Positions 5,236 through 62,800 of a stretch of DNA of 64,000 nucleotides are shown one piece after another. The stretch is from Geosiphon pyriformis uo1 (taxonomy: Eukaryota > Fungi > Glomeromycota): NCBI GenBank assembly GCA_016748015.1, contig JAAOMT010000011.1, forward strand, positions 1-64,000, in the 5' to 3' direction. The position numbers and the translations under genes are program-made. Position 1 is the first letter of the stretch. Each line of letters opens with the position of its first letter. The notes under the pieces are model-generated. The model was not told where the DNA came from. It was given only the letters and a program-made list of their open reading frames with translations, and ran no database searches.

Positions 5236-5477
5236 GCAGATAAAAAGTTTTCTTTTAGTGTCTACTTCAAAAGTTCTGGTAACTTATTCTCAGAGTGACT
5301 TCTTGTTTTTTTTCTATAGGGGTAATAGTTCTGAAAATTATTTATTACTGGGGCTGTGATTTCTTTCTGAATGTAATTGATTTGACTTCTATTAATCGTT
5401 ATGGATAAGTCAGGAAGTGTTTTCAAGGCTAATATTAATTTTTGGGATATTTGTTGAATATTTTGGAGAATAATCAT
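5236..5477 (-). pseudogene. A2 ORF3 N-terminal part, interrupted by A1
   Basis: MIILQNIQQISQKLILALKTLPDLSITIN, homologous to 45086-45793. Confidence 0.85.
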
Positions 5478-17300: not shown

Positions 17301-19958
17301 AGGTTTTTGGTCTCTTTTTTTCAATGTTGTTAATGTCTATTTGCTGTGAATTCACGTTTTTTGGATGTGGTTGAACCTCCAGTAACTGAATTTATCTTCA
17401 AATTATCTTTTATAATTTGAACTACTGGGCTTATAAGTGGAATGACCAATTCCATGCCAGTTACTTTGTATAGTTATGTTGTAGTAAACATCAACTCTTT
17501 TCCAGGAATTGCTTGTCTAGAAGCTCACTAAAATGTGTAGTTACTTTGCTGTGAAAGTCAACTCTTCTACAGGAATTCTCGTCTGTAGACTACCCAAATA
17601 ATTTATAATAAAAAAAGAAAGAAAATAAGAGAAATGTAAAAGAAAAAAATAAAACTAATAATTTATGAAAGTTGTTTCGGATCCAGGCCTGAAAGTGTTT
17701 TAACAGTCTACTGAAATTAGTAGCTAATCAATTTCAAAACTGTTAGTAGGAATTGGTTAATTTCAAGGGAAATAATTTAAGAATTTGGCTTTTCGAATTT
17801 ATTTGATATTTATTTTGTTTTTTTGTGTGTAAAGAATGATTCTAATTATTAAATCTGAAGTAAGATACATTTCCTCAAAGAGAGAAGCTCTTCTTTTATA
17901 CAACTTGTCATAACACTATTTTATGAACTTGAACTTTGCTATTTTCTATAATTTCACTGAACTAAAGATACATTTCAGCAAACTACAAGTTATTTCTACA
18001 AACTATTAGATATTTCGGCAAACTATCAATTATTTTGGCAAATTTCTTACAAATTTCGGCAAACTTTTTGAATGTTACATAGTTCAGGGTATTGCATGAT
18101 TGATTATTACAATTAGATTACATTTGTGTTATGTACAAATTGGATTATTAATTAAATGATAATTTCGGATATTTTGCTAATGTAGTAAGTGATAATTTTA
18201 ATAATAATATATGCTAATTAATGATAAGATTTATAAGGGTAATTTCATGCTAAACAATATCTTTAATTTTGTCTGGTAACAATGTTTTTCTTGATTGCAA
18301 TTTGTCTCTGGGTGGCTCTTTGGCCAATCTCTTTTGGTTTTGTGGTGAAGTCTTTATGTCTACTGTTCTGGGTGAGTTATAATTTCTCAGGTTTTTTTCT
18401 TCTCTTTGGTGGTATGGTATTGTCTTTGTGGATCAACTTGTGATCATCATGGTTCTGTCTTTGATTGGCACACCTTCAAGTATTGAAAGAAGTTGAACTT
18501 CTGTGGCCTTGTTCTTGAGTAGTTTAGGCTTTTTGTTGCATTTCTTAATAGTGGAAGTTCTTCTCTTATTCATCCTTTGTCTTTGGATGGTGTTAATTCT
18601 TTGAACATTTTCGAATCTCATGATTTTGTTTTTGTCTATGAATGTCTCTCACAAGTTGGTACTAACAGTTTGTTGGTGTATACAGATAGGTCTCTTAGTA
18701 GTCTGAACACAGCTGGCTGTAGAGCTGGTGCTGCTGCTTTTTTCAAAGACATTAATTTGGGTTTAGGTATTGGTGTGTCGGGTTTGATGTTGTCTACTTT
18801 GGTGGAGTTGCAGACTATTGTACTGGCTCTGGAGTGTGTCTTTTCAATGAGCTCTGTTAAATTGTTTTCAGATAGCCAATCTGCTCTGGATGCCTGTAGG
18901 TCAGAATTGGGTCTGGCATGTTTCAACTTTCATAATCAGTGTTAGGTAGAGCATTATCATATTGTCAATGTTATTCACAATAAGAATTTGAAGGTCAGCT
19001 GGCATAAGGTTAAAGGTTACTCTGGTTTTTTAGGGAATAAGTGCACTGATGCAATTGCTGGTAATGCTTCTCTCTTTAGTTGGCATCTTCCTTCTCACTT
19101 GGGTAAATGCTTTATAATGGCTGATGGTAGTGTTGTTTCAGGCAATTCTAGACATTTTGTCCATGATATTTATTGTTCAGTTTGTCATGCATGCTGTGAA
19201 GTTGGTTTTGGTTCCAGGTTTTTGGTAGACAGTTTGCTTTCTGAGGTTGATTGGCTCTATTCATCTTTGGTTTGGCACCCTGACTTGCACATGGCCACTG
19301 GTTTTACCAGCAAATTCTCGGCTAATGCACATACTTATTTCATGAAAGCTCTACACTACCAGCTGCCAGTTGCTGTTTAAAAGTGCCTTTATAATAGACT
19401 TTATCCAAGTGTTTTGTGCTTATATTGTGGTGATGTGGAGACATCAAATCATGTGTTCTCTTATAAGATTGATGATTCTGCTTGATGTCAGTTATTGGAA
19501 TCTTATGTGGACTCTTAGAAGACAATATCTGGTCTTTTTCATTCTTCTTTAAGCATATTACAACTGTTATCATTCTGTGTTTCTGACTCCTCTTTGTCTA
19601 TGACTCTTTATAAGAGTTTTGTTTTTGGTGGTTGGTTTTATGAGGCAGTCACCATCTTCAAGATTCCAAGATTGCTTGTTTGGAGATTGTCAAATTTGTG
19701 TACTCTTTTAGTTTTGCTTTTAGGAGTGATGTTTGGTTAGTTCGTGCTAAACATCATGCTTATATGGAGAAAAAAGGGTTGATTCTCTTTGATGGCTCGG
19801 TTCTCTTTTTGGTTTCTGGTTTGGCCTTAGGATTGTTGGCTGAAGTGGTCAAGTTGCTTGGCATTGCCAATGCTTTTGGTGTTTGTTTTGGCTTTCACAA
19901 ATCTTGTTTATTTTTTTCAGACATAGATAACTTAGTTTCAGTTCATATAGCTGCATAG
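14329..19958 (+). pseudogene. LINE1 ORF2 (APE endonuclease-RT-RNase H-zinc motif), disrupted
   Basis: Fragments 14422-14709, 14899-15123, 15644-16021, 16334-16942, 18577-18945, 18988-19380, 19680-19958; likely start ATA (ex-ATG) at 14329 overlaps the ORF1 stop. Confidence 0.9.
17292..18281 (-). repeat. Family A solo LTR with 4-bp TSD ATGT
   Basis: TGTTAC...GTAACA; ATGT at 17288-17291 and 18282-18285; LINE ORF2 resumes across it. Confidence 0.95.
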
Positions 19959-27431: not shown

Positions 27432-28404
27432 TGTTACCAGAGGTTTTTGGTCTCTTTTCTTAAATGTTGTTAATGTTAATTTGCTGTGAATTCACATTTT
27501 CAGAAAGTAGTTGGACCTCCAGTAACTGAATTTATCTTCAAATTATCTCTTATAATTTGAACTGCTGGGCTTATAAGTGAAATGACCAATTCCTTACTAG
27601 TTACTTTATGTAATTACATTGTAGTAAATATCAACTCTTTCCCAAGAATTGCTTATCTGAAAGCTTACTAAAAATATGTAGTTACTTTGCTGTGAAAGTC
27701 AACTTTTCTACAGGAATCTTGTCTGTAGACTACTCTAATAATTATAATAAGAAAAGAAAAGAAAAATAAAAGAAATATAAAAGAAATAAAATTTTATCAA
27801 GGAAAACGTTTTCTATTCAGGCCTGGAATCACTAACAGATTATTGAAATTGGTAGCTAATCAATTTTAAAATGTTAGTTGTGTTAAGGAAATTTCAAGTA
27901 CAATAATTTAAGGATTTGGTTTTTTGAATATTTAATTTTTATTTGAATATGTAAAAAGTGATTTGTTCCAATTAAGATATCTAAAGTAAGATACTATGTT
28001 AAGATACTATAAAAAGATACATTTTCTTAAAGAGAGAAGTTTTTTTTTTATACAACTTGTTGTAGTACTAGTCTTTGAACTTGCACTTTTCTTTTTGCTA
28101 CAATTTGGGTAAACTAAAAATATATTTCGACAAACTCCAAGTTATTTTACTGAACTATTTGATTATTTCGGCCAATTTTTATTAATTTTGGTGAATTTTG
28201 ACTATGTTAAATGGTTCAAGGTATTGTGTAATTTGATCATCTTAATTTCTAAAGTACAAATCGGATTATTGATTAAGTAATAATATTTGATAATTTGATT
28301 AAATAATAAGTGATAATCGAAATGATAATAATATATGCTAATTAATAATAGGAATTATAAGGGTAATTTCATGCTAATTAATAATTAAAATTCTACTGGT
28401 AACA
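27432..28404 (-). repeat. Family A LTR (3' LTR of A3)
   Basis: Termini TGTTAC/GTAACA, adjacent PPT; shares diagnostic bases (CAGATTATTG, AGTTGTG) with the LTR at 63537. Confidence 0.93.
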
Positions 28405-29091
28405 TAATCTCTTCCTCAAGACTGAGCTCTGTCGAAATCCAAGCACTATTTGTGATGTTAAGATAGTGGTCCAAAATAATTGAAGTAATCTAATCTAAAA
28501 ATTGTTGAAATTTCAGTTCTGTGAGTTTTTCAATGTATTGAATCTTCATTGGATGGAGTATTAGATTTTGTAGAACATTTTCACAAGTATTGAATAAATC
28601 ATAGAATTTAAATGCTGCTCTAAGTTTGTAGCGAGTGTTTATTGGTCCAGCTGCTGTCTTGAATTCATTGTGAATTTGTTTTTATATAGCTTTAGGAGTA
28701 ATGTTGGTTGCTTCAAGTTCCAGTTTTCGTTCATAAAGTGTTTTTCCAATATGAAAATATCTATATATAAGAGTATGTTTATTGTTCTGTTCATTGAGGA
28801 ATAGTAGAAGTTTTTGTTATATTGTGATATTTGGTGGAATGTCAATAGGGACAATTAAAAGGTTTTCTTTTAGTGCTTGCTTCAAAAGTTCTATTAATCT
28901 ATTTCCAGAGTGACCTTTTGTTTTTCTTCTATAAGGGTGATAGTTCTGAGAATTATTTACTATTAGGACTGTAATTTCTTTCTGAATGTAATTAATTTGA
29001 CTTCCATTAATTATTATAGATAAGTCAGGAAGTGTTTTTAAAGCTAACATTAATTTTTGGAATATTTGTTGGATATTCGGGGAATAATCAT
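28385..29091 (-). pseudogene. A3 ORF3, disrupted
   Basis: ORF 28817-29116 NIQQIFQKLMLALKTLPDL, homologous to the A4 ORF3. Confidence 0.85.
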
Positions 29092-31957: not shown

Positions 31958-31972
31958 TTATCCCTCTCTTTT

Positions 31973-32707
31973 TTAGAATTGAGCTTCTGCGAAATTGTAT
32001 ATATCTATTCCTATGTCTTTATTTGTGTAATGTTCAATGATTGCATTGAGTATTGTTTTTTGTAGGTTTTCGAACTGTTGATTGGTAATTCATTCTATGT
32101 TGTTAACTGTTATTGTCTTTATCAATCCATACAACAGTATATTTGGACAATGTTGGAAAGCGACGTATAGTTGGTATGCTGTTTTGTAATATAGAGTCAG
32201 ATTGTTTTTCCCTATGAACTTTTCTACTTGTTGTATTGCTTTTTTATTGAACGTTTTCTGGCTGAAGTCTTCATATGGTGTTTTCAAGTCAAGTTGTTCT
32301 CCAATTTTGTAGAACCAATATGCTGGAAAAAGTTTTTCTTTCCATTCCTGGGCATTGTCAGGTGTCCACTCCTTTGTTTCAGGGAGTTCAGTTTCATGAG
32401 CTAAAGCTTCTTTTATTTCTTTGAGCTCAGGGACCAAGTATCTTCTTTTGTAACCTTTTTTTTGTTCTTTGCCTCTTTCTTCTCTACCTTCTGCCCGAAG
32501 GCAATTTTTTCTCCAACATTGTCTTTCGGGTGGTGGGTAGAAGAGGGAACGTTTAGTTTTAATTGAACTCTCATCCTCCCTTCTTCTGCTCTTATCTTTG
32601 TACCATATTTCTTTTTTATCAATTGTTATTTCTATCTGAGCAGGAGATTTTTGAATTGTTTCAAATAATTGTTTAGATAATTTTAAAATTTGATCTGAAA
32701 AGTCCAT
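31973..32707 (-). pseudogene. Family B ORF3 (unknown protein), frameshifted near the C-terminus
   Basis: MDFSDQILKLSKQLFETIQ..IEITIDKKEIWY..FYKIGEQL..AYQLYVAF; lies between integrase and PPT. Confidence 0.82.
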
Positions 32708-36868: not shown

Positions 36869-37880
36869 TGTTACCAGTAGAATTTTAGCTATTAATTAGC
36901 ATGAAATTACCCTTATAATTCCTATAATTCATTAGTATATTAATATCATTTCAAATTATCATTTATTATTTAATCAATTATCACATATCATGATTCAATT
37001 AAAATAATCTAATTAGTATAACAGAAAGTAAGATGATCAAATTACACAATACCCTGAACTTTGTAACATTCAAAAATTTGCCAAAATTTACAGAAATTTG
37101 CCGAAATTTATAAAAAATTTGCCAAAATTTACAGAAATTCGCTGAAATTATGAATAGTTCACCCAAATTAATCAATAGTTCAGCAAAATAACTTGTAGTT
37201 CATCAAAATGTATCTTTAGTTTGCTGGAATTTGGGCAAAGAGAAAAAGTGCAAGTTCATAAACTAGTACTACAACAAGTTGTATAAAAGAAGAGCTTTTC
37301 TCTTCTGGAAAATGTATCTTACTTTAGATTTATCTCTTAAAACTGTTCCTATACACACAAAAAAAAATAAATATCAAATAATTCAAAAAAACAAATTTTT
37401 TAATTATTGTACTTGGAAAATCCCCAAAACCCAACTAACATTTCGAAATTGATTAGCTACTAATTTCAGTAAACTGTTAGTGACTCCAGGTCTGGATAGA
37501 AAACGTTTCTCTTAACAAAATTTTATTTCTTTTATATTTCTTTTATTTTCTTTTATTTTTCTTATTACAATCATTAAAGTAGCCTACAGACAAGATTCCT
37601 GTAGAAGAGTTGACTTTCACAGCAAAGTAACTACACATTTTTAGTGAGCTTCCAGACAAACAATTCCTGGGAAAAAGTTGACGTTTACTACAACATAACT
37701 ACATAAAGTAACTGGCAAGGAATTGGCCATTCCACTTATAAGCCCAGCAGTTCAAATTATAGAAGATAATTTGAAGATAAATTTAGTTATTGGAGGTTCA
37801 GCTACTTCCTGAAAACGTGAATTCACAGTAGATCAACATTACCAACATTTAAGAAAAGAGACCAAAAACCTCTGGTAATA
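36869..37880 (+). repeat. A4 5' LTR (1012 bp)
   Basis: Direct repeat of 45774-46785; terminal CA mutated to TA. Confidence 0.95.
37074..37150 (+). repeat. Tandem 21-bp repeat AAATTYGCCGAAATTTACAGA (about 4 copies) in the LTR
   Basis: Directly visible; also at about 45979-46055. Confidence 0.85.
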
Positions 37881-37882
37881 TT

Positions 37883-37892
37883 TGGTGCTCTC
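37883..37892 (+). promoter_or_regulatory. Primer binding site TGGTGCTCTC
   Basis: 2 nt after the LTR; complementary to a tRNA 3' end ..GAGAGCACCA; shared with families B and C. Confidence 0.85.
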
Positions 37893-37925
37893 CCACAGAA
37901 ATAACACAGCAACAACAAATTCAAA

Positions 37926-40900
37926 GTGGCAATCACACCAGACACAGCAACTCTAGAATATTACCAGTCAATTTACACCCACTACAAGCAAAGATTCAAC
38001 ATTCCAGACGGAATTGAAATTGTAAAGAAATCAGTATACCAATATATTGAAAACCACATCAACAATTATCTTTTTGGAAACTACAACATTTCAGAAGTTA
38101 GAAGCAACCTCTACAATAATTTAGTGCATTATTCACATTTGGGAACAGAAGACCTGAACAGTGAAACACTTGCTACCTACTTTCAAGAACTTAATTTTAA
38201 TATTATTAAGTATTGTGAAGAAAAATACCCAGTACAGTCTAAATACTCTTTTGACTTTGAATCAGAGACAGAAACAAGCAATAAAGGCAAACAAAGATTG
38301 AAGCAATACTCAAGAACCACTCCAAACACTCCAACACTACAAAAGACAACTGCCAAACACTTGCAAACATCTGAACAAGGAACCAGTGTCAAATTACCAC
38401 TTTCTATTATACCATTTCCAATTTCACTTGTTCAACCACAAACACCAAGTTCACCACTTAGCCGTTTCTCCAGACCAGAAGATTTTCAGTCACCTAGAAA
38501 TCCTACTCAACAGCAGGAACCAATATCAACAAGTGCCAATATCATTGATTACTTACAGAAAAACGAAAGTAATCACTCAGAAAGCTTGGAAAGTAAAGAA
38601 ACTGAATCAAAACCAGAAGAAATTCCAGAAAATGAAGAAGAAATGGCAACTGCTTACATTGCAAAAATCCCAGAATTCACTGGTGAAGACAATGATACCA
38701 GTCCCCAAGAATGGCTTGACAAAGTTCAAAAAGCAGGAGATGCAAATGGTTGGATTGCAGCAAGAATGCTCAAAGCAATTCCCTACTTTCTCCAAGAAAC
38801 AGCAGGAGAATAGTTTGAAAATTTAGAAGAACCATTTGAAAACTGGCAAGCATTCAAAGATGTTTTTCTACAACAATTCACTAACAACAATACCTCTATC
38901 CCTCTCAGAAACCGCTTTCACAATATCAAACAAGAAACATCTGAATCTGTTATGACCTATCTTGGAAGATTTAACAAACTTCTCAGATGAATCCGACAAT
39001 TGGAAACCAATGACTACTATTCTGATGCTCAAATTCTGGATCAGTTTATAGCAGGGTTAAAAGACAAACTGATTAAGAAAGTCCGTCCACATGCTCCAGC
39101 AGACTTAGCAACTCCTATTAAACATGCAAAGAGCTATGAAATGGCAATAGAAAAAGCAAACCACACCAAACTTGTCAACCTAGCTATTGAAAAAACCAGC
39201 TCAGCAGCTGAAAAAAAAATAGACCAACTTACAAAGAAAGTTGAAAACTACTTTACAAACCAACAACAACAGCAACAATCACAAAGATATCAACCACTAC
39301 AATGATGTAACCAAAACAATTTTGGTTACCCATCTAACAACCAACTTCAAAATTGTCATTATTGTGGAATTTCAGGACACTGAAAACAAGATTGCAGAAA
39401 ATTGCAAAGAGACCAACAAAACAGGAGTAATCAATGTTATTCTTTATCACAACCATCTTATTACCAACCTCCACCACCAATTTATTATTTATCAAGACCA
39501 CAAAATTAAAACAATTATTATCTACCAGCTCCACAACCAATACAGCAACAATATTAGCAACTTTTACCAATTCAGCAATATCAAACACCATCTATTCAAC
39601 AATATCAAATACCAGCCAGAAGATTGGTTCAACATAACCAATTCACATCCCAAAATCAATTTCAGAATAATAACAACAGAATTAATCCAAATAACCAGTT
39701 GGTTTCCCAAAATTTGGGCCAGCAAAGACCCAATCACTATCACACTCAACCCAGTTATCTTACAATACCAGAGGAATCGGATTTTCAACAAACTGCACTT
39801 TCTAAAGGTAAAATTGCAGCACCAAGATCAAACTCTTCTAACCACACTATTCCCTCAGCTCAAATTGCCCAAAATGCTAATCTGTCAGATATATTTCCAT
39901 TTGAATTTGAGGCAAATGAATCACCATTTCTGCTTAGTAATGCAGCAGTCAATGAACAGAAAGCAATTACTGCCATGTACACAGAAACTACAGTGGAAGG
40001 AAAACCCATTCGCTTAATCTTAGATAGTGGATCAGCTGGAAGTATTATCACTTACCAGCTGATGCAACAACTTAAACGAAATGTAGACAGACCAGCTCAA
40101 ACAGTTATTGTTACAGCTGATAGTATGAAGAAGACTCCAGTAGGAGAAATTTATGATTTCCCTTTTTCAATTGATGGAATCACCATTCCAGTTAAAGTTC
40201 TTGTTATGGATGCACCCCAATACCAAGCTCTAGTCGGAAATGATTGGCTTCACAAGACCAATGCAAACCTGAACTGGGAAACTCAAGAACTTAAAATTTC
40301 ATACCAAGGACAATATACCATAGTATTTGCAACCTGTGGTATCTTTAACAAATGATCAGAAAAAGCTCCAGTATTTGAATTTGAAGAGGAGAAAGAAATG
40401 CCACTTACTGAAACCTACATGGCTCTTGGATCAACATCCAATTGGGCTGAAGAAACCAAACAAGAGATTTTCGAAGAATCAAGGGGATGGAAGAAAGTTA
40501 GATATTCTACACCAGAACCACAGAAACAACCACTCTATATTCCACTCAAATGCAAAGATTGCAACAAAAAACTTTCATCAATGGTGCCATGTATTTCTCC
40601 AGAAGAGGAATATAAAACTTGTACCTGTTACTTTTGCAAAGCATGCCATAGAAAACAATTTGGATCTCCAAAAAGAAGTAGAAAATGGGACAACACACCT
40701 TGCCTTACATGTGGAGAAATACTACCAGAAGAATGCAATTGGATTGATGTAGCAATGAGAGGAGGAGTATGTGATCAAACCTGTCAATATGCTCTATCAA
40801 TTTCGGAAAAAGTCAGAAGAGGAACACCATTTGATGCAGCATACAACAGTGCTCTCAATAAACTTTACCACTACCCTCATGATGCTGAAATGATTTTTGA

Positions 40901-43533
40901 CCTAGCAATGGCATTAATCAATGGAGCCACTCAAGAAGATGTCCACCAAATGAAAGAAGCTGAATATATTGAGTACATCATGGAATTAGCTGGATTTGAT
41001 TATGAAGATGAAGTAGAAACCTACCACCAAATTGCAAGCCACACATATCCGACCAAAGAAGCTCAAATTCAACAATTAGAGCAAATGAACATTCAATTGT
41101 GTAAAGAATGTGTTATGCCTTGTGATGACCAATGGTGTTTAGAATGTTATGCTCTTAGCATTTCTCAGCCAGATGAAAATGATGAAAATGAAATCGAATT
41201 TGGAGTATTTGAACAAGTAGAAGAACTACCAACCACTTCCATCTATCTTCTTGAAAAGCAACCACCTCTACAACTTAAATATTTTGACAACCATGGCCAA
41301 GGAATCAGACCAGAAAAAGCACACGAAATTGATGCTAGATATGACTTGAGATATCCAGGAAAAGATACTTTGATTCTCCAACCAAAGTCTTTGACAAAAA
41401 TCAATCTAAAAATTGCTCTTGAAATTCCACCAGGAGCAATGGTTCAAATTGCCTCCAGATTATCATTGGCAAGCAAAGGAATCAATATTAGAGGAGGAGT
41501 TATAGATGCAGGATACATTGGAGACATTACTATTATGTTACAAAATGAGACAGACAAACCATTCAAAATTGAACATGCTGAAAAAATTGCTCAAGCAATT
41601 TACTTACCCTTAATCAACATTTCGGGTTTACAATCAGTAAACAACAGAGAACAATTGGGAAAAAGTGAAAGAGAAACTCAAGGTTTTGGTTCAACTGGAC
41701 GATTTACAGTTCCAGTAAACATAGTTCTTAATACACAAAATGAATCTCACCAGATTCTTCAACTTCCTCAGCCAATTACCATTTCATTTTTTGGAGAACA
41801 TCACGAAATTTACACTTGCTCAAAACCCAAATCTTTGAATCCAATGAACAAATCTGTTTGAAGCATGAAATATCAGTTCCAAACATTTATATTCCCAAAG
41901 GAATGAAAAAATTTTGAGTTACATTTTACAACCCCAATAATTACCCTATTGTTTTATTAAACAAATTAAAAATTAGAATCATACACAGCAATATCTTTCA
42001 AGATGAAAACTCTCAAATTGTCTCTAATTTTATCGAAATTATAAAGCACACTCTACTCCCAAATCCAAATATCATTCCCACTACTGAAAACTACCACTTG
42101 TTGGAAGAAAAACTCTCTTGAATCAATATAGGTCCCTTAGAACCTCAACAACAAAGACAATTGAAACAATTGATAGCTGAATTTGCAGACATATTTGCAA
42201 AAGACAACAATGACTTGGGAAAAACAGACATTGTTCAACATCAGATCCATACAGGAGATGCTCTACCAAAACGTCAACAAGCTTATTAAGTGCCACCTGC
42301 CAGCCACCAATTTATTAGAGAAGAGGTCCAAAGAATGCTCAATAACGGATTGATTCAACCATCAAGAAGTCCTTGGGCCTCACCAGTAGTTTTGGTTAAA
42401 AAGAAAAACAGAAAAATTAGATTCTGTGTTGATTATAGACAACTGAATAGTGTTACAATTGGAGATGCCTACCCTCTTTCAAAAATTGATAACATGCTAG
42501 ATGCTCTGGGAAAAGCCAAGTTTTTTTCAACTTTAGACCTGGAAAGTGAATACTGGCAAGTCGAAATGGACCCAAAAGATAGACCCAAAACAGCATTTAC
42601 CACTCAAGGAAGAAATTATGAGTTTAATGTTATGCCTTTTGGACTCTGCAATGCACCAGCAACATTTCAGCGATTTATGGATGTTGTCTATGAAGGGTTT
42701 TTGTGGCAATCAGTAGTTGTTTATCTTGATGATACTAATGTATACTCACCAAGCTTTGAAGTCTATCTCATTCACCTGCGAGAAGTTTTTCAATGATTAC
42801 AGAAAGCAGAATTAAAGTTAAATATTGAGAAATGTCACTTTGGAAAAACAAGTTTGATCTTTCTTGGACACATAGTTAATAAAGATGGAATCAAACCAAA
42901 TTCAAGAACAATCAATACTGTCAAAAACTTTCAAACTCCAGAAATACTACAGAACTAAGAAGATTTGTGGGATTAGCCTCTTACTATCGAAAATTCATAA
43001 AAGGATTCTCAGAAATTGCCAAACCACTCAATTATCTTACCAACAAAAACGTATCCTACAAATAGACTGAAGAACAACAAAAAGCTTTTGAAATTCTCAA
43101 AACAAAATTGACAACAGCCCCAATTCTTGCTTACCCAGACTTCAACAAACAATTCCAATTAGCTACTGATGCCTCACACATAGCATTTGGTGCTATCTTA
43201 TCACAATTGGATAAAAATGGCCAAGAACAAGTTATTGCCTATGCCAGCAGAACATTTAAGCCAACAGAACTCAAATATGGCTCAACTGAATTAGAAGCTG
43301 CTGCAGTTATTTGGGCTCTTAAACATTTTCAACAATATCTGAAAAATGAAAAAGAATTTGACATAATAACGGACAACATTGGCCTCAAATGGCTCAATAA
43401 AAAGAAAACTGAACAAAGTGCCAAACAATCTCAATGGAATGACTTCCTAGCAGACTACAGATATATTGTACACCACAAACCAGAAAAACTACATACCAAT
43501 GTTGATAGCCTTTCAAGAATGAGACAAGATTAG
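37926..43533 (+). pseudogene. A4 gag (N-domain, capsid, CCHC knuckle)-protease-Cys-rich domain-dUTPase-RT-RNase H polyprotein, with stops and frameshifts
   Basis: ORFs 37926, 39000, 39624 and 40398 share one frame; ILDSGSAGS; dUTPase motifs YDL, GVIDAGY.G, KIAQAI, GFGSTG; RT YLDD; RH ATDAS..ELEAAAV..NVDSLSR. Confidence 0.93.
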
Positions 43534-43590
43534 TACCAACAACAATTCCACCACAACTTACTAACTTACCAACAAAATAACCAAACAAGA

Positions 43591-44942
43591 ATGGATTCCA
43601 GAAACTACAGCAATCTTAAAATTATTTGGAGACCCTTACCATGCCAGAAAACTGGTCTCCAAGTGAAAAATACCGCTTACAACACTAATCAAAACAATAT
43701 TTCATACACCAGAACAAAATTTATTATAAAAATCACAGAAAACCAAACCAGCCATTCAGATTAGTACAAGAGAATGAAAAAGAAACAATTTTATACAACA
43801 TGCACACAGATCCGTTTTCAGCACACTTGGGAAAAGAGAGAACAATTCAAAGAACCTTTGAACATTATTTTTGGCCTCACATGCAAAAAGACATTTGACA
43901 ATATGTAAAATTTTGTGATAACTGCCAAAGAAGAGGAGGAACTCGCCCCACAGAACTTTTAAATCCAATCAAAGTTGGACAACCTTTTGACAGAGTTGGA
44001 ATTGATTTAGTCAGACCATTACTTATCACAACCCAAGGAAATCGTTATATTGTAGTTGCAGTGGATTATCTTACCAAATGGCCTGAAGCTAGAGCCATCC
44101 AAAAAGCAGATGCAAAATCAGTAGCAAAATTCATCTATGAAGACATTATCTGTAGACATGAATGCCCAATTGAACTCTTATTTAATCAAGGAACACATTT
44201 TGTGAACAACTTGATACAAGAAATTTGTAAACGGTTCAATGTCAAAAGATTTCTATCATCACCTTATCACCCTCAAACAAATAGACTTGTAGAACGTTTC
44301 AACAGAACATTGTGTGAATCTTTAGCCAAAGTCTCAACAGACTTTGAACAAGAATAGGATATCTTTATTCCATCAGTGTTACTAGCATACAGAACACTAA
44401 AACAAGATACTATGAAACACACACCATTTGATCTTACTTATGGAAAGACAGCAACATTACCAATTAATTTCACAGTGGAAACATACCCAGTGCAACCAAT
44501 CAATAAAGAAAACTTTCAAGAGACACTTCAAAGAAGAGCCTACACTCTTCTTAGTACACTGGAAGAAAAAAGAAGAATAGCAACAGCTCATATTGAACAT
44601 TCCCAAGCTCAACAAAAAGAAAGACATGACAACAAATTATCATCTATTACCAACGAATTTAAAGTTGAAAATAAAGTTCTCTTACACAGAACAAAGGCTG
44701 AAAAACAATGGAGTGGGAAATTTGAAAAGNNNNNNNNNNNNNNNNNNNNNNNNNNNNNNNNNNNNNNNNNNNNNNNNNNNNNNNNNNNNNNNNNNNNNNN
44801 NNNNNNNNNNNNNNNNNNNNNNNNNNNNNNNNNNNNNATTCCACAAATTGGTACACATTCCCCTTTAATTAATCCTGAAGATATTCCCCGAAATTTAGAA
44901 CCAATAATTATAATAGAACAACAACCAAACTTGAACACTTAA
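43591..44942 (+). pseudogene. A4 integrase (separate ORF after the RNase H stop), disrupted; no chromodomain
   Basis: ATG at 43591; H..H..CDNC, IDLV, QGTHF, VERFNRTL, TPFDLTYG. Confidence 0.9.
44730..44837. other. Assembly gap (108 N)
   Basis: Run of n. Confidence 1.
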
Positions 44943-45085
44943 ATTTTACAATAATTCTCTACTAAAAACACAAAGACAAAAATAGTAAATAATTACAAAA
45001 CACCCAAACCCAAAAACAAATAAAAACCCCATATCCAAAAAATAATTTTCTTTATTCTCTCTTTTCATAATTAGTCAATTTTATC

Positions 45086-45793
45086 ATAATTATTCCTCGA
45101 AATATTCAACAAATATTCCAAAAATTAATGTTAGCCTTGAAAACACTTCCTGACTTATCTATAACGATTGATGGAAGTCAAATTAAATACATTCAGAAAA
45201 AAACCACAGCCCCAGTAGCAAATCATTTACAGAACTATCACCTCTATAAAAGAGAAACAAAAAGTCACTCTGAGAATAGATTACCAAAACTTTTGAAGCA
45301 GGCACTAGAAGAAAATCTGCTAATTGCCTCTATTAACATTCCACCAAATGCTACAATGCAACAAAAACTATTACTACTTCTTAATGAACAGAACAATGAA
45401 CACACCCTTATCTATAGATACTTTCAAATTGGAAAAACACTTTATAAACGAAAACTGGAACTTGAAGCAACAAATCTCACTCCTGAAGTTATACAAAAAC
45501 AAATCTACAATAAATTCAAAACAGCAGCTGGACCAACAAACACTTGCTACAAACTTAGAGCAGCTTTTAGACTTTATGATTTGTTTAATACTTGTGAAAA
45601 TGTTCTACAAAATCCAATACTGCAATCAATGAAAGTCCAATACATTGGCAAACTCACAGAACTGAAATTTCAACAATTTTCAGACCAGATTACTTCAATC
45701 ATTTTAGATCACTATCTCAATATTACAGATAGTGTTTGGACTTTGACGGAGCTCAGTCTTGAGGAGGAGATTATGTTACCAATAGAATTTTAG
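45086..45793 (+). CDS. A4 ORF3, unknown protein of about 235 aa in the env position; frame open, start ATA here (ATG in A2/A3)
   Basis: Stop-free 221 aa from 45128 plus 14 upstream codons; runs through the PPT into the LTR; homologs in A2, A3, B and C. Confidence 0.75.
   Translation: MIIPRNIQQIFQKLMLALKTLPDLSITIDGSQIKYIQKKTTAPVANHLQNYHLYKRETKSHSENRLPKLLKQALEENLLIASINIPPNATMQQKLLLLLNEQNNEHTLIYRYFQIGKTLYKRKLELEATNLTPEVIQKQIYNKFKTAAGPTNTCYKLRAAFRLYDLFNTCENVLQNPILQSMKVQYIGKLTELKFQQFSDQITSIILDHYLNITDSVWTLTELSLEEEIMLPIEF
45761..45770 (+). other. Polypurine tract GAGGAGGAGA
   Basis: 3 nt before the 3'LTR. Confidence 0.85.
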
Positions 45794-46785
45794 CTATTAA
45801 TTAGCATGAAATTACCCTTATAATTCCTATAATTCATTAGTATATTAATATTATTTCAAATTATCATTTATTATTTAATTAATTATCACATATCACGATT
45901 CAATTAAAATAATCTAATTAGTATAACAGAAAGTAAGATAATCAAATTACACAATACCCTGAACTTTGTAACATTCAAAAATTTGCCGAAATTTACAGAA
46001 ATTTGCCGAAATTTATAAGAAATTCGCCGAAATTTACAGAAATTTGCCGAAATTATGAATAGTTTACCCAAATTAATCAATAGTTCAGCAAAATAACTTG
46101 AAGTTCATCAAAATGTATCTTTAGTTTGCTGGAATTTGGGCAAAGAGAAAAAGGGCAAGTTCATAAACTAGTACTACAACAAGTTGTATAAAAGAAGAGT
46201 TTTTCTCTTCTGAAAAATGTATCTTACTTTAGATTTATCTCTTAAAACCGTTCCTATACACACAAAAAGAAATAAATATCAAATAATTCAAAAAACCAAA
46301 TTCTTTAATTATTGTACTTGGAAAATCCCCAAAACCCAACTAACATTTCGAAATTGATTAGCTACCAATTTCAGTAAACTGTTAGTGACTCCAGGCCTGG
46401 ATAGAAAACGTTTCTCTTGACAAAATTCTATTTCTTTTACATTTCTTTTATTTTCTTTTATTTTTCTTATTACAATCATTAGGGTAGCCTACAGACGAGA
46501 TTCCTGTAGAAGAGTTGACTTTCACAGCAAAGTAACTACACATTTTTAGTGAGCTTTCAGATGAGCAATTCCTGAGAAAGAGTTGACGTTTACTACAATG
46601 TAACTACATAAAGTAACTAGCAAGGAATTGGCCATTCTACTTATAAGCCCAGCAGTTCAAATTATAGGAGATAATTTGAAGATAAATTCAGTTATTGGAG
46701 GTTCAGCTACTTCCTGAAAACGTGAATTCACAGTAGATCAACATTACCAACATTTAAGAAAAGAGACCAAAAACCTCCAGTAACA
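45774..46785 (+). repeat. A4 3' LTR
   Basis: TGTTAC...GTAACA; direct repeat of 36869-37880. Confidence 0.95.
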
Positions 46786-49310: not shown

Positions 49311-49940
49311 TTAATATTAAGCTCCATCAAAATCTAATTCTTTTAATTCTCCCTCTTGAATTATTTCTTGAACTTTTTTTTCGAGTATTACTTATGTTAT
49401 TTGACTTTGTAATTCTTCAAATTGGACATTGGTCATTTTTCCTAATTGATTACTCGTAACTGTATCCATTGCTGTGTTGAGTAAGATTTCTGGTCAGTCT
49501 TGAAATCCTATATATAGCTGGTAAATGGCTCGAGCTTGTGTGGTTAGATTGTTTTTTCTCACAAATTGTTCTAGTTGTCTCAGTATTGTTGTGTCAAATA
49601 ACCATTTTGTTTTGTCAGTGTATAAATTCTGGATATTTATGTGTTGTCCCAAGTAGAAATAACAATAGTTTTTCAGAAATTTTTGCATCCACCAAGTCCA
49701 AGTTTCTCTGATAAGATCTTAGTGTAATCTGACTATTTGTTGTTTGTTTATGGCCAATTTTATTTTGGTCATGATCTTGTTAACAACATTTTCAAGTCTT
49801 TTCTGTGCTTTGTGTTGTGGTATCTTTGCCATATTTTTGTAACAAATGGTTTGTTAATTGATTGTAATTTCTATTTCTTGGTGTTGGATCAATTGAAAGA
49901 GTTGTTGTGCTAGTGAGTGGATGTTGTTGGTTATTTCCAT
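49311..49940 (-). pseudogene. Family C ORF3, disrupted
   Basis: MEITNNIHSLAQQLFQLIQHQEIEITIN..YFYLGQHI..AIYQLYIGF..LGKMTNVQF. Confidence 0.8.
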
Positions 49941-51437: not shown

Positions 51438-54400
51438 TTAGATTTGTCTCATTTGTAATAAACCATCAGTATTTCCATTGTCTTTTTCCTTTTTATAATG
51501 TATAGTATAATTATATGATGCAAGTACCATTTTTCATCTTGACTGTTTTTCATCTCCAAATTCTTGTTTTTGGAGTGATGTTAATCCTTTGTGATCTGTG
51601 TATACTTCAAACTTCTGGCTTAAGTATTTTTTCCATTTTATGACTGCCCAATATATTGCTAAGTGTTCTTGTTCCGGTGTTCCATAGTTCTTTTTGGCTG
51701 GTGTTAGACCTTGGCTGGCATATGCTACTGGATGTTCTCTGCTGTCTGGTTCTCTCTGAGATAGTACTGCCCCCAATGCTTGGCCAGATGCATCGGTGGT
51801 GATGATAAATGGTTTGCTGTGATCTGAATAGATCAGTACTGGAGCTTAGATGAGCTTTCTTTTCAGAATATCAAAAGCTTCTTGTTGACTTTCTGTCCAT
51901 TTATATTTTGTATTTTTGTTTTGCAGCTGGTTGAGTGGCTGTGCTATCTTGGAGAAGTTCTGAATAAAACATCGATAGTAGTTGGCAAATCCCAAGAATG
52001 ATTTCAGTTCTGTTATATTGGTCAGCACTGGAAAGTTCTTTACTATTTCTATTTTCTCTGGATCCATTTTGATGCCATCTTTGCTGACTATATGTCCCAA
52101 GAATTTTAGTTCTGTCTTGCTGAAGAAGCACTTTGTTGCATTTAACTTTAATCCTGCTCTTTTTAGTCTTTCAAACACTTGTTGAAGATGATAAAAATAA
52201 TCATCAAACATTTTTAAGAATACATTGGTGTCATCCAAGTATACAACTACTGATTTCCATAATAAACCAGTATAAATAATTTCCATTAACCATTGGAAAG
52301 TGGCTGGAGCATTGGTTAAGCCAAATGGCATTACTTCAAATTCGAAATTTCCTTCTCTAGTAGTGAATGCCATCTTTTCTTTGTCGGCTGGATTCATGGC
52401 TACTTGTCAGTAACCACTATCTAAGTCTAATGTTGAGAACCATTTGTTCCTGCCGAAAGCGTCGAATAATTCCTGTATTCATGGAGTTGGATAACTGTCT
52501 CCATGAGTTACATTATTGAGTTTCCTGTAGTCCACACAAAATCGGATTTTTCCATTCTTTTTATAGACCAGTACTACTGGTGACAACTATGAGCTCATTA
52601 ATGGTTGAATTAGCCTATTGTCAAGCATTCAGTTTATCTCTTGACAAATGATCTCATGGCTGGCTAGTGGTACTCTGTATGCTCGCTGTTTGATTGGCAT
52701 TGCATTTCTAGTCTTGATTTAATGTTGGATGATGTCAGTTCTGCCAAATTTGTTTTTGCTGGCAAAGATGTCATTGAAATTGTTGAGTAACATCCTGAGC
52801 TGTATACGTTGTAGTGAGTTTAGATTTCCTATGTTCATTTGTTCCAATTGTTCTGGTTGGAGCAAATAATATTTGTCTTGTCCATAGATTGTTTGTGATG
52901 TGATGTTGACATATTCACAAAGTTGTAGAAAGTCTGGAATGGGGTTTGGTGATTGGTTTTCTATTTCTGTGGTTAAATATCCGATGGTGGTTCCTTCTGG
53001 TATGTTGATAACATTGCCAGTGTTGTTGTAGATGGGAATTTTTATGTGGTTATAGCTTTTGGCTGATATGTGGAGATTGATCAGTCCAATCTCTCCTGAT
53101 TTACAAAGATTTGCTTCAGCTTCAAAAATCTGTTCTTGCTCCTTTTTTTTTCTTTCTATTGCTAGCATATACTGGCTATATGATGGAATAGAAATAGCTT
53201 GACTGGTTGAGATAATTTCTCCTTGGCCAACAATTTCTTCCTCCACCATATTAACTAGTATATCTATTCTACTCATTGATTCAAATTCCTGTATCTCTCT
53301 TGCTGTTATCGCTAATTCTTCCCTGTTTCCCACTGACACTAATTAAGCTATTTTAACCAGAGATAGGAATATTGCCTGTGTTATCTTTTTGTTTGGCTCT
53401 ATTATATAGGCTTTTTCTGAGTCGTTTTGTAGCATAGCAATGATATTTCCTACATATTCTGTGTCAATTATTCCTCCTCTGATGTTTATCTCTCTTTTTA
53501 CTAAACTACTCCTAGATGCTAATTAAACCATTGTTGTTGCTGAAATTTCCAGTGCTATTTTCAAATCAATGCAGGTGTGCAAATATGATTCCAATTTGAT
53601 GGCATCTTTTCCTGGATATCTCAGATCAAATCTGGCATCAGTATCATGCACATGTTCTGGCATAATACCTTCATTATTATTGCTAAACCATTTCAGTTTT
53701 TGTTCCTTGGTGAGGTCAAGAAGTGCAATATATTGTTCATAATTTGAGTCGGAATTTGAATCTGAGTTGATATTATTGTCATTGTCATTGCCATTTTGAA
53801 TGAAGCTGGAACCATTATTCTCGTCGTCATTGTTGTTGAAGTTTGAATCAGAATTGAACGATGATTCCAACTCCGATGTGCAGCTGCTGATTGGTTCTTT
53901 CTTTTCGGGGATCATGTAGATCATGCATGGTGGTGGATTGTAAATGAGGTCACAATCATCACAATATTCAAAGTCACTGAAAATTAAACAATGGCAACAC
54001 AGTCTTGTATTCAACTGTGCTAGCCATTGTTCTTGCTTCTCTCTAGTGAGTGCTAAGTTTTGGTAGTGTTCATAGAACTCTTCTGGTTCTAGGGAATTTA
54101 TGACTGGCTCTGTGTCCCAGTCAAGCTTGATGGGTTCTGGTGGGTTGTTCTTGATCTCTCTGATCTCTTCGGGTGTTACTCTTTCTATTTTGGTGATTGC
54201 CATTCTCCAAATTTTGTCATCGTCATGTGGACAACTGTCCAGTCACTGCATGGCTCTTTTTCAAACTGTTTCTATTGGGGTTCCTTTTTTTACCCAGTCG
54301 TTTATTAGAATTGTGTATTGACATGACACGTCACATGTTCCTCTATGTCTTGGAATGTTATTCCATATCTCTTTATCTAGCAAGATCTCCTCACAAACAA

Positions 54401-57400
54401 GACAAGGTTGGTTATTCCATTTTTCTTGTCTCTTTGGTTATCCAAAGCATTCAAGTATGCATGAATGACAGTAGAACTTTGTTGCGGTGTGGTATTCCTC
54501 ATTGTCGCCACAACATGCACCCATTGATGACAGTTTCTTGCCACAATCAATGCATACAAGCCTTGGTCATCGATAATCAGATTGTTGTGGAGTGTGGTGG
54601 GTGTAGGAATTATAAATGGTGGCAGTTGGTGGCATTACTTCTTCCTTTTCTTTTCCTTTTCCTTTATCTTCTTTCTATTCCCAACTTAAGGCTTCTTCTT
54701 GTTCATTGTCAGACCAAGTCAGATTGTCAGTTTCTCAGGTAAATTCGTTTGTTTGCTTTTCTTTCCTGTTGTTGTCCCAAGAGAGTATGGGTGGCAGTTT
54801 ATTGTGCTTTTCATCAGCCCACAATACTTGGTAGGCTTCTCAGGTAGATTTTGGTTTCTCTTTCTTGAAGTTGATTAGTGGTGCAATGGTGTTGGTAGTC
54901 TTGAAGTGGTCACACATTGCTGATATGTGCATGTGTCATCTGTTTTGGCTGAGTTGTAGCTTTTGTGTGTTCCAGTCCAGAGTGGCATTCGTCTTGGACA
55001 GCCAGTTATTACCAACTAGAGTTTGGTATTGGGTGGCTTCCATGATGAGTACTTTGATTGGTACTATGATGTCATTAATTTCAATTGGTAAGTCATCGAT
55101 TTCACCAATTGGAGTCTTGGTCACTCCATTAGCTGTGATGATTCTGGCGCTGACAGTTTGATTAACTCAGTGACCTAATTGATCTATGAATTGTCGTGTG
55201 ATGATGCTGTCTGCTGAACCACTGTCAAGAATTAGTTTGATGGGATGGCCATCAATTTTCGCATCAGTGTACATGGCAGTAATTGGCTTTTCTTCTAGTG
55301 CAGCTCCACTGAATAATAGTGTGGTTAACAGTTCCTTGAGTTCAAATGGAAAAATGGCATCCAGAGATTCGTCTTCCGTGATTGTGGCAGATGGAATGTT
55401 GCTGGCTGGTGTTTGTTCGAGTTCCCAGTTGTTGGGTGTGGTGTTTTCTGGAGTAACCAGGAGACTTAAATAGTTTTGGGAATTCGGGTTTTGGGTGGCA
55501 CCTGTACCCAAATTCCGAGAACAGAGTCCTGAGTTTTGGTGAAAAGAGTTGGAAATCAGTTGATGAACAACCATTGCCAATCTCCAATTTTGAGCAATTC
55601 TGGATCTTGGGTTTCCTGATGTCATCATAGCAGAGTTTTGGAGCAGTGTTTGGATTGATGGTTGAGACTGATAAATTATTTAGAACTGTGGCTAATAAAT
55701 TACTAGAGGCTGCTGTTGATAAATTGCTGATGGTTGCAGTTGATAAACTGGAGGTTAATATATTGGTGGTTGATAGATTGGTTGCTGCGTCATTGGCAGA
55801 TAAGTATTTTGATATTGGTCTTGATCTTGATTTGGGTAATGATTCAGAGTTTGGAACTGGCAATTGGGATTTCTGTATTGATTTCCTGATCGTTGGTTGC
55901 TATAAGTATGGCAATTAACTTGAATATGGTCTTGTTTACCACAGTTGTGGCAGACATGTGTTTCTGGCTGCCACGACTGACTAGGTGCTACAAATGATGA
56001 TGGACGTGACTGATTTTGAAAACGATTTATGTTTCCTGAATTATTGTGTCATTGTGGTGGTTGATATATGGCGCAATTGTCAGCTAAGTATCTCTCTAAT
56101 TTCTGATTAATTGACTTACTAAATTGTTTCAATTTGGAATCCAATTCAGATGATCCATTCATAACTAGGTTTACTGCTTGGGCGTGATTGGCTTCTAACT
56201 CAGCTGTTTCAAAATCTCTGGCATGTGTAACTGTGATAAGGAGGTCAACTGGATGCATTGAGCATACTCGCTGAAGGAGGTTACTGTACAAACCTCTAAT
56301 AAATTGGTTCAAAATCTGTGGCACTGTAAAATAGTCAGCTTGAATTGCTTGGATCTGGCACAGGTTTCTATGGAAGCGTCCCAAGTAAGTGGTGACTGCT
56401 TCAGTCTCTTCTTGTTTGATGGTGGTGAAGAGATTAGCTAATTTGTTGATACTATTATTGTTACTGAAATATCTTAAGAATTCCGTCTTGAAGTTGTTAA
56501 AGGTTTGGGGTTTAACAGCTAGACTTTGATATCATGCATCCATGGTGTCTCTTAGAAAGTATGGGATGGCTTGAAGTGCTTGGGCATCATTCCATCTATT
56601 CGCAGTGATGGCTTTCTCTACATCATTCAGCCATACTTGCGTGTCATCCTTTTCACTGGTAAAGTTGTTAAGTTTTGTGATTGGTGCATAGGCCATTGGG
56701 TCTAAGTTGGGTTGTTGTGGTGGCTGTTGAAGCAGTTGTTGTTGTACTGGTTGTTGGGATGGTAGTTGAAATGGCTGCTGTATGGGTTTGGCTATTGGAT
56801 TAATTGGTGGTTGATTGATGACAATTACTGGAGGTAAGTTTTGCTGATTAATTAATTTGGAGTTTGGATTGTTCTGCCTTTGATGATTCAGAGTTTTGAT
56901 TTCTGAATTTTTTAGATTTAGATTTTGCTGAATTTGAATGTTCAAAGTTCCAAATTCCAGGTTTTCAAGGATCAGGTTTTGGTAAGTAAATTTTTGATAT
57001 TCCGATTCTTCTTTCTCTTCTTCTTCAGATAGTTTTCACGGAGTAGTGGTTCCAAAGTCTGGTTGAGATGGTGGTGATCGAATTCCTGATGGTGTAGGTA
57101 ATCATAAGTTAAATTTTTCTAAGTATTCACCATATGGTCTTAGTAAGTCTGTTTTCTCTTGTTTACTTTGAAATGGAAATCTTCCAAATACTAATGTCAC
57201 ATTTGATGTGGATGTGTCTGTAGATGTAATATTAATGGCACTTCTGGGTGTATAGTGGTATGATGGATTAGTTGGAGATTCGACTCTTGTTTTCTTCCAA
57301 GTGGGTGGTTGTATCCTTTTAGGTATTACTGCTGGTGTTTGTAGTTTTTCTTTGCCTTTACTAGCATATATAATTGGATATCTTTGTTGGGTGTGATGTT

Positions 57401-59876: not shown

Positions 59877-62800
59877 TAATATGATGATAATGTTTTCAGT
59901 ATATTCTGCATCTATGATTCCTCCTCTAATGTTGATTCCTTTGTTTGCCAATGATAATCTGAATGCAATTTGAACCATTGCTTCAAGTGGAATTTCAAGA
60001 GCAATTTTTAGATTGATTCTTGTCAATAACTTTGGTTGGAGAACCAAAGTATCTTTTCTTGGATATTTTAGATCATATCTAGCATTAATCTCATATGCTT
60101 TTTTTGGTCTAATTCTTTGGCCATAGTTGTCGAAATATTTAAGTTGTAGAGGTGGTTGATTTTCAAGAAGATAAATGGGAGTGGTTGGTAGTTCTTCTAC
60201 TAGTTCAAATACTCCAAATTCGATTTCATTTTCATCATTTTCATCTGGCAGGGGAATGCTAAGAGCATAGCATTCTAAACACCATTGGTCATCATAAGGC
60301 ATAACACATTCTTTACATAGTTGAATATTCATTTGCTTCAATTGTTGAATTTGAGCTTCTTTGGTTGGATATATATGACTTGTAATTTGGTGGTAGGTTT
60401 CTACTTTATCTTTATAATCAAATCCAGCTAATTCTATGGTGTACTCAATATATTCAGCTTCTTTTATTTGGTGGACATCACCTTGGGTGGTTTCATTGAT
60501 TAATACCATAGCTAAGTCAAATATCATTTCAGCATCATAAGGGTAATGGTAGAGTTTATTAAGAGCACTGTTGTATGCTGCATCAAATAGTGTTCCTCTT
60601 CTGAATTTTTCCGAAATTGATAGAGCATATTGGCAGATTTGATCACATACTCCTCCTCTCATTGCAACATCAATCCAGTTGTATTCTTCTGATAGCATAT
60701 CTCTACATGTAAGACAAGGAGTGTTGTCCCATTTTCTACTTCTTTTTGGAAATCTAAATCGTTTTCTATGGCATGCTTTGCAAAAGTAGCAAGTGCAAGT
60801 TTCATATTCCTCTTCTGAGAAAATACAGGCTCTCATAAATGAAAGCTTCTTTTTGCAATCTTTGCATTTTAGTGGAATGTATGGTGGTTTTTTTTGTGGT
60901 TTTGGTGTGGAATATCTAACTTTCTTCCATTTTCTTGATTCTTCAAAAATCTCTTGTTCTGTTTCCTCAGCCCAATTGGATGTTAATCCAAGAGCCATGT
61001 AGGTTTCAGTGAATGACATTTCTTTCTCCTCTTTAAATTCAAATACTGGGGCTTTATCTGATCATTTGTTGAAAGTTCTATAAATAGCAGGTATTATAGT
61101 ATATTGTCCTTAGTAGGAGATTTTTAGTTCCTGAGTTTCCCAGTCTAAGTTTGCATTGGCCTTAAAAAGCCAATCATTTTCGACCAGAGCTTGGTATTGG
61201 GATGCATCTATGACTAGAACTTTGACTAAAATAGTAATTCCATTAATAATGAATAGAAAATTGTCAATTTCTCCTACTGGTGTCTTTTTTATACCATCTG
61301 CTATAACAATTACAGTTTGGGCTGGTTTGTCAACAGTTCTTTGAAGCTATTGTATTAACTGGTAGATAATAATACTTCCAGCTAATCTATTGTTTAGAAT
61401 TAATTGGATGGGTTTTCTTTCTACTGTAATTTCAGTGTACATGACAGTGATAGTTTTTTGCTCATTAATTACTGCATTGCTAAGCAAAAATGGTAATTCA
61501 TTTGCTTCAAATTTGAATGGGAATATATCTGAAAGGTTGGTATTTTGGGCGATTTGGGCTGATAGAATAGTGTTGTTGGAAGGATTTAATCTTGGTGCTG
61601 CAACTTTACCTTCAGAAAGTGCAGTTTGTTAAAAATCCGATCCTTTTGGCATTGTAAGGTAACTGGGTTGAGTGTGATAGTGGTTGGGTCTTTGCTGACC
61701 AGAATTTCGGGGAACCAACTGGTTATTTAGATTAATTCTGTTGTTATTATTCTAAAATTGATTTTGGGATGTGAATTGGTTATGTTGAACCAATCTTCTG
61801 GCTGGTATTTGATATTGTTGAGTGGATGGTGTTTGATATTGCTGAATTGGTAAAAGTTGCTAATATTGTTGCTGTATTGGTTGTAGAGCTGGTGGATAAT
61901 AATTGTTTTAATTTTGTGGTCTTGATAAATAATAAATTGGTGGTGGAGGTTGGTAATAAGATGGTTGTGGTAAAGAATAACATTGATTACTCCTGTTTTG
62001 TTGGTCTCTTTGCAATTTTCTGCAATCTTGTTTTCAGTGTCCTGGAATTCCACAATAATGACAATTTTGAGGTTGGTTGTTAGATGGTGAACCAAAATTG
62101 TTTTGGTTACATCGTTGTAGTGGTTGATATCTTTGTGATTGTTGCTGTTGTTGTTGGTTTGTAAAGTAGTTTTCAACTTTCTTTGTAAGTTGGTCTATTT
62201 TTTTTTCAGCTGCTGAGCTGGTTTTTTCAATAGCTAGGTTGACAAGTTTGGTGTGGTTTGCTTCTTCCATTGCCATTTCATAGTTCTTTGCATGTCTAAT
62301 GGCAGTTGTCAAGTCTTTTGGAGCATGTGGACAGACTTTCTTAATGAGTTTGTCTTTTAATCTTGCTATAAACTGATCCAAAATCTGGGCATCAGAATAG
62401 TAATCATTGGTTTCCAATTGTCGAATTTGTCGAAAAAGTTTGTTGAATCTTCTAAGATAGGTCATGACAGTTTCGGATATTTCTTGTTTGATATTGCAAA
62501 AGTGATTGTAGAGAGTGATAGAGATGTTGTTGTTAGTGAATTGTTGTAAAAAAGCATCTTTGATTGCTTGCCAGTTTTCAAATGGTTCTCCTAAGTTTTC
62601 AAATCATTCTTCTACTATTTCTTGGAGAAAGTATGGAATTGCTTTAAGCATTCTTGCTGCATTCTAATCATTTGTATCTCCTGCTTTTTGAACTTTGTCA
62701 AGCCATTCTTGAGAACTGGTATCATTATCTTCACTAGTAAATTCTGGAATCTTTGCAATATAAGCAGTTGCCATTTCTTCTTTGTTTTTTGTGATTCTTT

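Follow-up and report, generated by a model that had tools for sequence, protein, structure and literature searches.

A soluble accessory protein with a selected core in the env position of Geosiphon pyriformis LTR retrotransposons

The ORF3 gene that follows pol in LTR retrotransposons of the fungus Geosiphon pyriformis encodes an old, co-inherited and soluble accessory protein whose core is under selection. ORF3 is a real protein family that appears not to have been described before and that occupies a known kind of slot. Here we set out the evidence for the family, its inheritance, its selection and its predicted structure, and we weigh the functions that it may serve.

Results

ORF3 in the window

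The window, by which we mean the whole 64,000-nucleotide stretch of DNA that was analysed (positions 1-64000), is a nest of decayed LTR elements that have inserted into one another. A six-frame search of the window with a profile of ORF3 relatives found exactly five copies of ORF3, in the same places as the original prediction of a real ORF3 in the env position, and the sole other row returned had an E value of 0.27. The matches to family A lie at 45086-45790 (E 2e-97), 28388-29083 (E 1e-90) and 5217-5477 (E 4e-23), and are referred to as the 45k, 28k and 5k copies; family B is matched at 31970-32707 (E 2e-59) and family C at 49317-49940 (E 3e-64). These copies are mutated relics (Table 1). 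Stops are present in the 28k, 5k, B and C copies, the 45k copy being the exception, and the 5k ORF3 is interrupted by a nested insertion, another A-like element whose LTR begins at 5235.

The interval 45071-45793 is open from stop to stop for 240 codons. The codon at 45086 is ATA in the 45k copy and ATG in both of the other A copies, and the first in-frame ATG of the 45k ORF3 is at 45128. ORF3 had been placed between integrase and the polypurine tract (PPT), and this is so in families B and C, where it terminates just upstream of the PPT; in family A, the frame crosses the PPT and terminates 20 nucleotides into the 3' LTR. The protein is basic (median pI 9.1 in 70 ORF3 sequences) and 25% of its residues are Leu or Ile. 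It had been called Lys/Gln-rich, a description that is only moderately apt (Lys 8.5%, Gln 8.1%). No transmembrane stretch had been expected and, in agreement, none of the 70 sequences has a 19-residue window with a hydrophobicity of at least 1.6 (the maximum is 1.50; one 74-amino-acid fragment was left out of this set). A hydrophobic N-terminal core is also absent, as judged by hydropathy alone.

Table 1. Positions of ORF3 copies, parts of the ORF3 protein and features of element A in the window
Feature	Position	Strand	Remarks
5' LTR, element A	36869..37880	+	TG...TA ends
Primer-binding-site-like TGG motif	37883..37894	+	directly after 5' LTR
Broken gag region	37905..39550	+	putative, from position and likeness to protein P0203
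Broken pol	39954..44942	+	protease, Cys-rich stretch, dUTPase, RT, RNase H, integrase; N gap 44730-44837
A/C-rich spacer, pol stop to ORF3	44943..45085	+	without ATG
Pyrimidine tract and TAG, candidate splice acceptor	45046..45074	+	TAG 45072-45074, 11 nt before ORF3 start
ORF3, element A	45086..45793	+	235 codons
N-terminal module, predicted helix and beta-hairpin (ITI..I.Y)	45086..45200	+	residues 5-37; pLDDT 52-63
Predicted disordered basic linker	45200..45270	+	model residues 39-61
Conserved core, predicted helical (Y.YF.IG..L; G.TN; RLY..F; IG.LT...F)	45401..45730	+	about residues 70-210; pLDDT about 83-94
PPT, element A	45761..45770	+	doubles as EEEI codons of ORF3
3' LTR, element A	45774..46785	+	TG...CA ends
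ORF3 copy, family A	28385..29091	-	78% protein identity; three stops and a frameshift near start
ORF3 N-terminal fragment, family A	5236..5477	-	carries stops
ORF3, family B	31973..32707	-	one internal stop
ORF3, family C	49317..49940	-	four internal stops

The host element

Element A, which carries the 45k copy, is 9.9 kb long, lies on the plus strand and has LTRs that are 95.8% identical over 1010 nucleotides. The order of its pol domains, its paired LTRs, its primer-binding-site-like motif and its PPT show that it is a Ty3/gypsy-type LTR retrotransposon: the Pfam matches on 39558-44354 run from protease through RT and RNase H to integrase, with a dUTPase between protease and RT. No Pfam match to gag was obtained on the pieces of the window that were scanned. 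The C-terminal ends of integrase in A (28k copy) and in the metagenome contig L001 likewise had no match to a chromodomain, a chromovirus trait, and both stop shortly after a weak SH3_Tf2-1 match. Element A is depleted in CpG (observed/expected 0.22), and the differences between copies are almost all transitions.

The dUTPase domain of this fungal gypsy-type element occupies 41310-41699 (+; E 1.5e-19). Between it and the protease is a Cys-rich stretch of about 315 residues with several CxxC pairs (40356-41300, +), copies of which are found at 60117-61061, 9333-10277 and 53952-54605 (-). This stretch has no Pfam match at E 0.01 and is 35% identical to its family C counterpart; it may be an unnamed zinc-binding domain. 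Elsewhere in the window, 13719-17349 (+) contains open frames, one of them with a weak RT match (E 7e-4), and no ORF3 match.

Range and inheritance of the family

The A protein has 201 homologues, and all of the 120 matches that were listed are hypothetical proteins of G. pyriformis; the B protein has 41, all from Geosiphon, one of which matches 86% of the query with 100% identity. On this evidence, the window most probably derives from G. pyriformis. When 1.84 billion representative proteins were searched with an HMM, 82 matches were obtained. Seventeen of these, together with three relatives from a further search, were traced to their source, and of the 20, 14 are Geosiphon proteins and 6 are metagenome proteins. 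The relatives fall into eight groups, five from Geosiphon (A-E) and three from metagenomes (M1-M3), and the family includes at least these. The top match for M2 in the Atlas is a 98-member cluster, mostly from Mucoromycota (0.94, 176 features), which is a lead to a wider range.

When independent alignments of each group were compared by hhalign, with reversed controls below 1%, the probabilities were 93.5% for A-B, 99.9% for B-C, 93.6% for A-D, 99.0% for A-M1, 98.5% for A-M2 and 89.7% for B-M3. The direct A-C and A-E comparisons are weak (19.7% and 0.6%), so the linkage of these groups runs through B and D. Profile similarity among the three families of the window is thus present, with the direct A-C value as its weak side, and all four motifs that had been called alignable do align across families.

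ORF3 follows integrase in the same slot in A, B, C and L001, and the order in L001 (integrase, a 316-nucleotide spacer, ORF3 of group M2, PPT, TGTTACC) repeats the layout of A. The integrase DNA of these four is 61-70% identical between groups. In the integrase tree (six sequences, four lineages) A and L001 are separated from B and C with a support of 100, and the ORF3 profiles split in the same way (A-M2 98.5% and B-C 99.9%, A-B 93.5%). In the sequence L002, a 137-codon open frame (398-811) with no Pfam match lies directly upstream of an ORF3 homologue, and this lineage may have a further extra gene.

Selection on the core

The 45k and 28k copies have a dN/dS of 0.36 over the whole of ORF3 (p 5e-5) and of 0.16 over the core (108 codons, p 5e-7, from this one pair of copies). 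The first 99 codons give 0.74, and comparisons of the N-terminal part with the 5k fragment give 1.77 and 1.03, none of which is significant; shifted-frame controls on the 45k and 28k pair give 1.6 and 1.4. In 2000 neutral simulations, with mutation rates taken from the LTRs and the synonymous share as the statistic, the observed share was reached by two runs for the core, by seven for the whole ORF and by 741 for the N-terminal part. The integrase control (two pairs, a third being discarded because it was out of frame) had dN/dS values of 0.57 and 0.36, which are within the neutral simulation (1375/2000 and 254/2000). At the protein level, subgroups A1 (29 proteins) and A2 (39 proteins) differ at 20 of 110 core positions and at 40 of 105 N-terminal positions (p 0.0014). 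On the basis of one DNA pair and this protein pattern, purifying selection is demonstrated for the core only. The accessory protein had been expected to be under selection: this is upheld for the core, where dN/dS is far below 1, and not for the N-terminal part, where it is near 1.

The synonymous excess in ORF3 (45101-45790) is clearer than that in integrase (43899-44729) in the same two copies. This contrast could reflect recombination between sublineages, or selection that acted on ORF3 once the element had inserted.

Predicted structure and conserved residues

We modelled P0003, a relative that is 85% identical to the protein of the window, with AlphaFold and a diverse alignment of 53 rows. 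The mean pLDDT is 72.9, compared with 53.5 for a poor earlier model. The core is predicted to be helical with confidence (pLDDT 80-94, about 90), in keeping with the helical look attributed to the protein at the outset, and the tail after it is loose. The N-terminal module has an amphipathic helix and keeps its pattern across families. Besides hydrophobic positions, the conserved residues are N152, F167 and the basic positions 150, 158 and 162, in a turn and the helix 153-167; K or R is the family majority at position 162 in seven of eight groups, at 150 in six and at 158 in five.

In the linker, positions 56 and 59 are basic in 6/7 family majorities. A PY followed by K or R is found there in 39 of 68 A proteins and in all of the M1 (2/2), M2 (2/2) and D (3/3) proteins; the 45k copy has HLYKR in its place, and the motif is absent from C (0/5), E (0/1), M3 (0/3) and three of four B proteins. 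The strict PY pattern occurs in 31 of 68 real A proteins compared with 24% of shuffles. Together, the PY and the basic residues resemble the PY-NLS consensus, and the linker is a candidate nuclear localisation signal. The tail has a net charge of -5 or lower in 5 of 10 proteins examined and is missing from M3; in A, M1 and M2 its composition is partly dictated by the overlapping PPT. No catalytic motif was recognised in ORF3, and a homodimer prediction run without an alignment gave no verdict (score 0.00).

Searches for known families and folds

Pfam returned no family at E 0.1 for the window ORF3s of A and B, and its scans gave no match to an env family, a host family or an RNA-binding family. 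The best E values from PDB sequence searches with ORF3 were 0.6 and 0.11. With the P0003 model, Foldseek found no match at E 0.001 in the PDB or in BFVD, so that neither Pfam nor these structure searches linked ORF3 to a known env or host domain, as the original prediction had anticipated; an uncharacterised phage protein was a weak match (probability 0.82, E 0.2). VIA-align of the same model against 48,161 chains reached a best Z of 5.1, which is within the chance range, and fold searches with the first model (pLDDT 53.5) found nothing. These null results come from whole-protein models only and are no proof of a new fold. Viral contigs held no relative of the ORF3 alignment or of the protein P0227, and tblastn against plasmids gave just three records at E 3-5.

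Three candidate relationships were not upheld. PHROGs family phrog_23683 (10/53 members, best E 4e-4) and NCBIfam FtsQ (20/53 members, 16 bits against a cut-off of 366) gave weak, family-A-biased matches. The third is DUF1016_N (PF17761), which in bacterial YhcG nucleases forms a mainly helical domain at the N-terminus (PMC1189080); it was matched below threshold by 11 of 71 members, all of family A (best E 0.0028), and its motif spacing is akin to that of ORF3 (Y..IG..L/I ... G ... RxFY/RLY). The protein P0046 scored 14.1 bits against a Pfam gathering score of 32.8, and hhalign with 86 YhcG N-termini gave 0.09-0.92% for the eight ORF3 groups and 0.13-0.18% for reversed profiles, both profiles being shallow (Neff <4).

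Candidate splice acceptor and expression

The pyrimidine tract and TAG that precede ORF3 are one of four such sites on the sense strand of element A. Family A had been described as having a pyrimidine tract and TTAG at this point, which is true of the 45k and 5k copies; in the 28k copy, AA replaces AG. In B and C, a YAG that lacks a pyrimidine tract stands 10 and 4 nucleotides before the ATG, and TATA-like runs lie about 40-45 nucleotides upstream of the ATG. L001 has no YAG within 260 nucleotides and no counterpart of the tract. Judging from these signals, expression of ORF3 by splicing or from an internal promoter is possible. At 46440-46482 in the 3' LTR, and at the equivalent place in the 5' LTR, a long run of pyrimidines that ends with TAG lies downstream of a TATA-like box (at about 46186), and could mark a leader intron.

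Discussion

Proposed function of ORF3

We tentatively propose, at somewhat less than even confidence, that ORF3 is a nuclear nucleic-acid-binding regulator that acts on the LTR of its own element. Its protein would be made from an mRNA of its own, spliced or transcribed from an internal promoter, and would be imported into the nucleus through the basic linker. There, the basic turn and helix (G-K-T-N...R-L-Y) would contact DNA, and the tail, which is often acidic, would recruit host factors, so that transcription from the LTR is switched on or sustained against host silencing; the protein could also act in trans on sister copies. In the related fungus Rhizophagus, as described in 10.1101/2021.03.30.436303, transposable elements are methylated and small RNAs are made from Gypsy elements. 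These observations, with the CpG depletion and transition-dominated divergence of element A, make host silencing a plausible pressure. The narrower reading, in which ORF3 has a new fold and acts in trans on its own LTRs to counter silencing or to transactivate them, is more doubtful.

An RNA-binding protein or a partner of integrase fits the same features equally well as a DNA-binding regulator. ORF3 might bind the RNA of the element or small RNAs, and so suppress RNAi, mediate the export of unspliced RNA or assist packaging. We consider this unlikely, although a basic, soluble, helical protein would suit such a role, Gypsy elements are small-RNA targets in Rhizophagus according to the study cited above, and a plant additional ORF with a DRBM-like structure has been proposed to modulate RNA silencing (PMC11728184). 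The Pfam scans, as reported, returned no RNA-binding family, and a weak lead to an Atlas closterovirus coat-protein cluster (0.92 and 0.93; 148 and 156 of 256 features) falls below the level of 170 features that most true family matches reach. We would give similarly low odds to a role in integration targeting or in the nuclear import of integrase, with ORF3 substituting in trans for a chromodomain. The integrases of A and L001, which have only the weak SH3_Tf2-1 match, the nesting of the elements in the window and the parallel grouping of ORF3 and integrase all accord with that role, as do likenesses to the CHD1 C-terminal domain (Z 5.0, rmsd 3.0, 80 aligned) and to Orc6 (Z 5.1, rmsd 5.6, 83 aligned), both within the chance range. 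However, nesting is to be expected in a genome of which 41% is LTR sequence (PMC11952901), and co-inheritance is to be expected whatever the function.

Two further readings are largely excluded. An env-like role, in the membrane or in entry, for a protein translated from a spliced mRNA would account for the env slot and for the acceptor-like site before ORF3 in two of three A copies, but it is hard to reconcile with a basic protein of about 230 amino acids that has no transmembrane-like window in any of the 70 sequences, begins with an amphipathic helix and a hairpin and matches no env family; we hold it to be very improbable. We give equally little weight to the possibility that ORF3 was captured as a fragment of a host gene, or arose as a by-product, and does nothing for the element: stops in all window copies but one and a near-neutral N-terminal part in the compared copies would be in order, yet the frame and motifs have been kept across families that share only 61-70% identity in integrase DNA, the core is under selection and no host family is matched. 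That the answer is something other than any of these readings is improbable, if less so than the last two.

Relationship to known systems

The nef gene of HIV and the tas/bel genes of foamy viruses are small non-structural genes located 3' of pol. Family A ORF3 resembles nef in overlapping the PPT and U3, and Tas, a nuclear LTR transactivator, is our working analogy for ORF3. No link in sequence or structure from ORF3 to nef or tas was found, and the element has no env. VANC is a transposon-encoded accessory protein that protects its own family from silencing. Among the systems named in PMC11728184 are the VANC anti-silencing proteins of Arabidopsis VANDAL DNA transposons; these belong to another class of transposon and another kingdom, no homology to ORF3 was found, and the likeness is proposed as an analogy only.

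Closer in position are the sense additional ORFs between pol and the 3' LTR (aORFs-3S) that are known in plants (PMC7264820, PMC11728184). ORF3 is likewise a sense ORF in the slot between pol and the 3' LTR and is present across copies (201 and 41 homologues). As far as these sources describe them, the aORFs-3S share with ORF3 the slot and strand, the presence in most copies of a family, the lack of a known homologue and an unproven function, and some of the plant proteins are nuclear. Unlike them, ORF3 is fungal (Glomeromycotina), is common to several deeply split families and overlaps the PPT and the start of the LTR in family A and two metagenome groups; unlike their env-like members, it has no transmembrane segment. 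LTR retrotransposons of bdelloid rotifers, as described in PMC5408684, also combine a non-env ORF3 in the env position with a dUTPase, but those ORF3s are enzymes (a GDSL esterase and a DEDDy exonuclease) with no significant departure from neutrality, whereas the Geosiphon ORF3 matches no enzyme and its core is selected. The literature searched holds no description of the ORF3 family; the Geosiphon genome papers and their supplements were outside that search, and a mention there is possible.

Significance

The function of most additional ORFs of LTR retrotransposons is unknown. ORF3 is a small protein with a confidently predicted fold. Public protein sets contain dozens of its open copies, deeply split families share it and its core is selected; it is therefore directly testable. 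Well over a hundred of the 'hypothetical proteins' in the annotation of G. pyriformis are copies of it. LTR sequence makes up 41.2% of the Geosiphon genome (PMC11952901). If ORF3 does act in anti-silencing or transactivation, fungal retroelements would have in it an equivalent of VANC or Tas, and it would be easier to explain how LTR elements came to fill about 41% of the genome in the face of methylation and small-RNA defences. Should ORF3 prove to be a nuclear regulator, it would be an accessory protein through which fungal retroelements are controlled, and it could be a driver of the spread of LTR sequence in Geosiphon.
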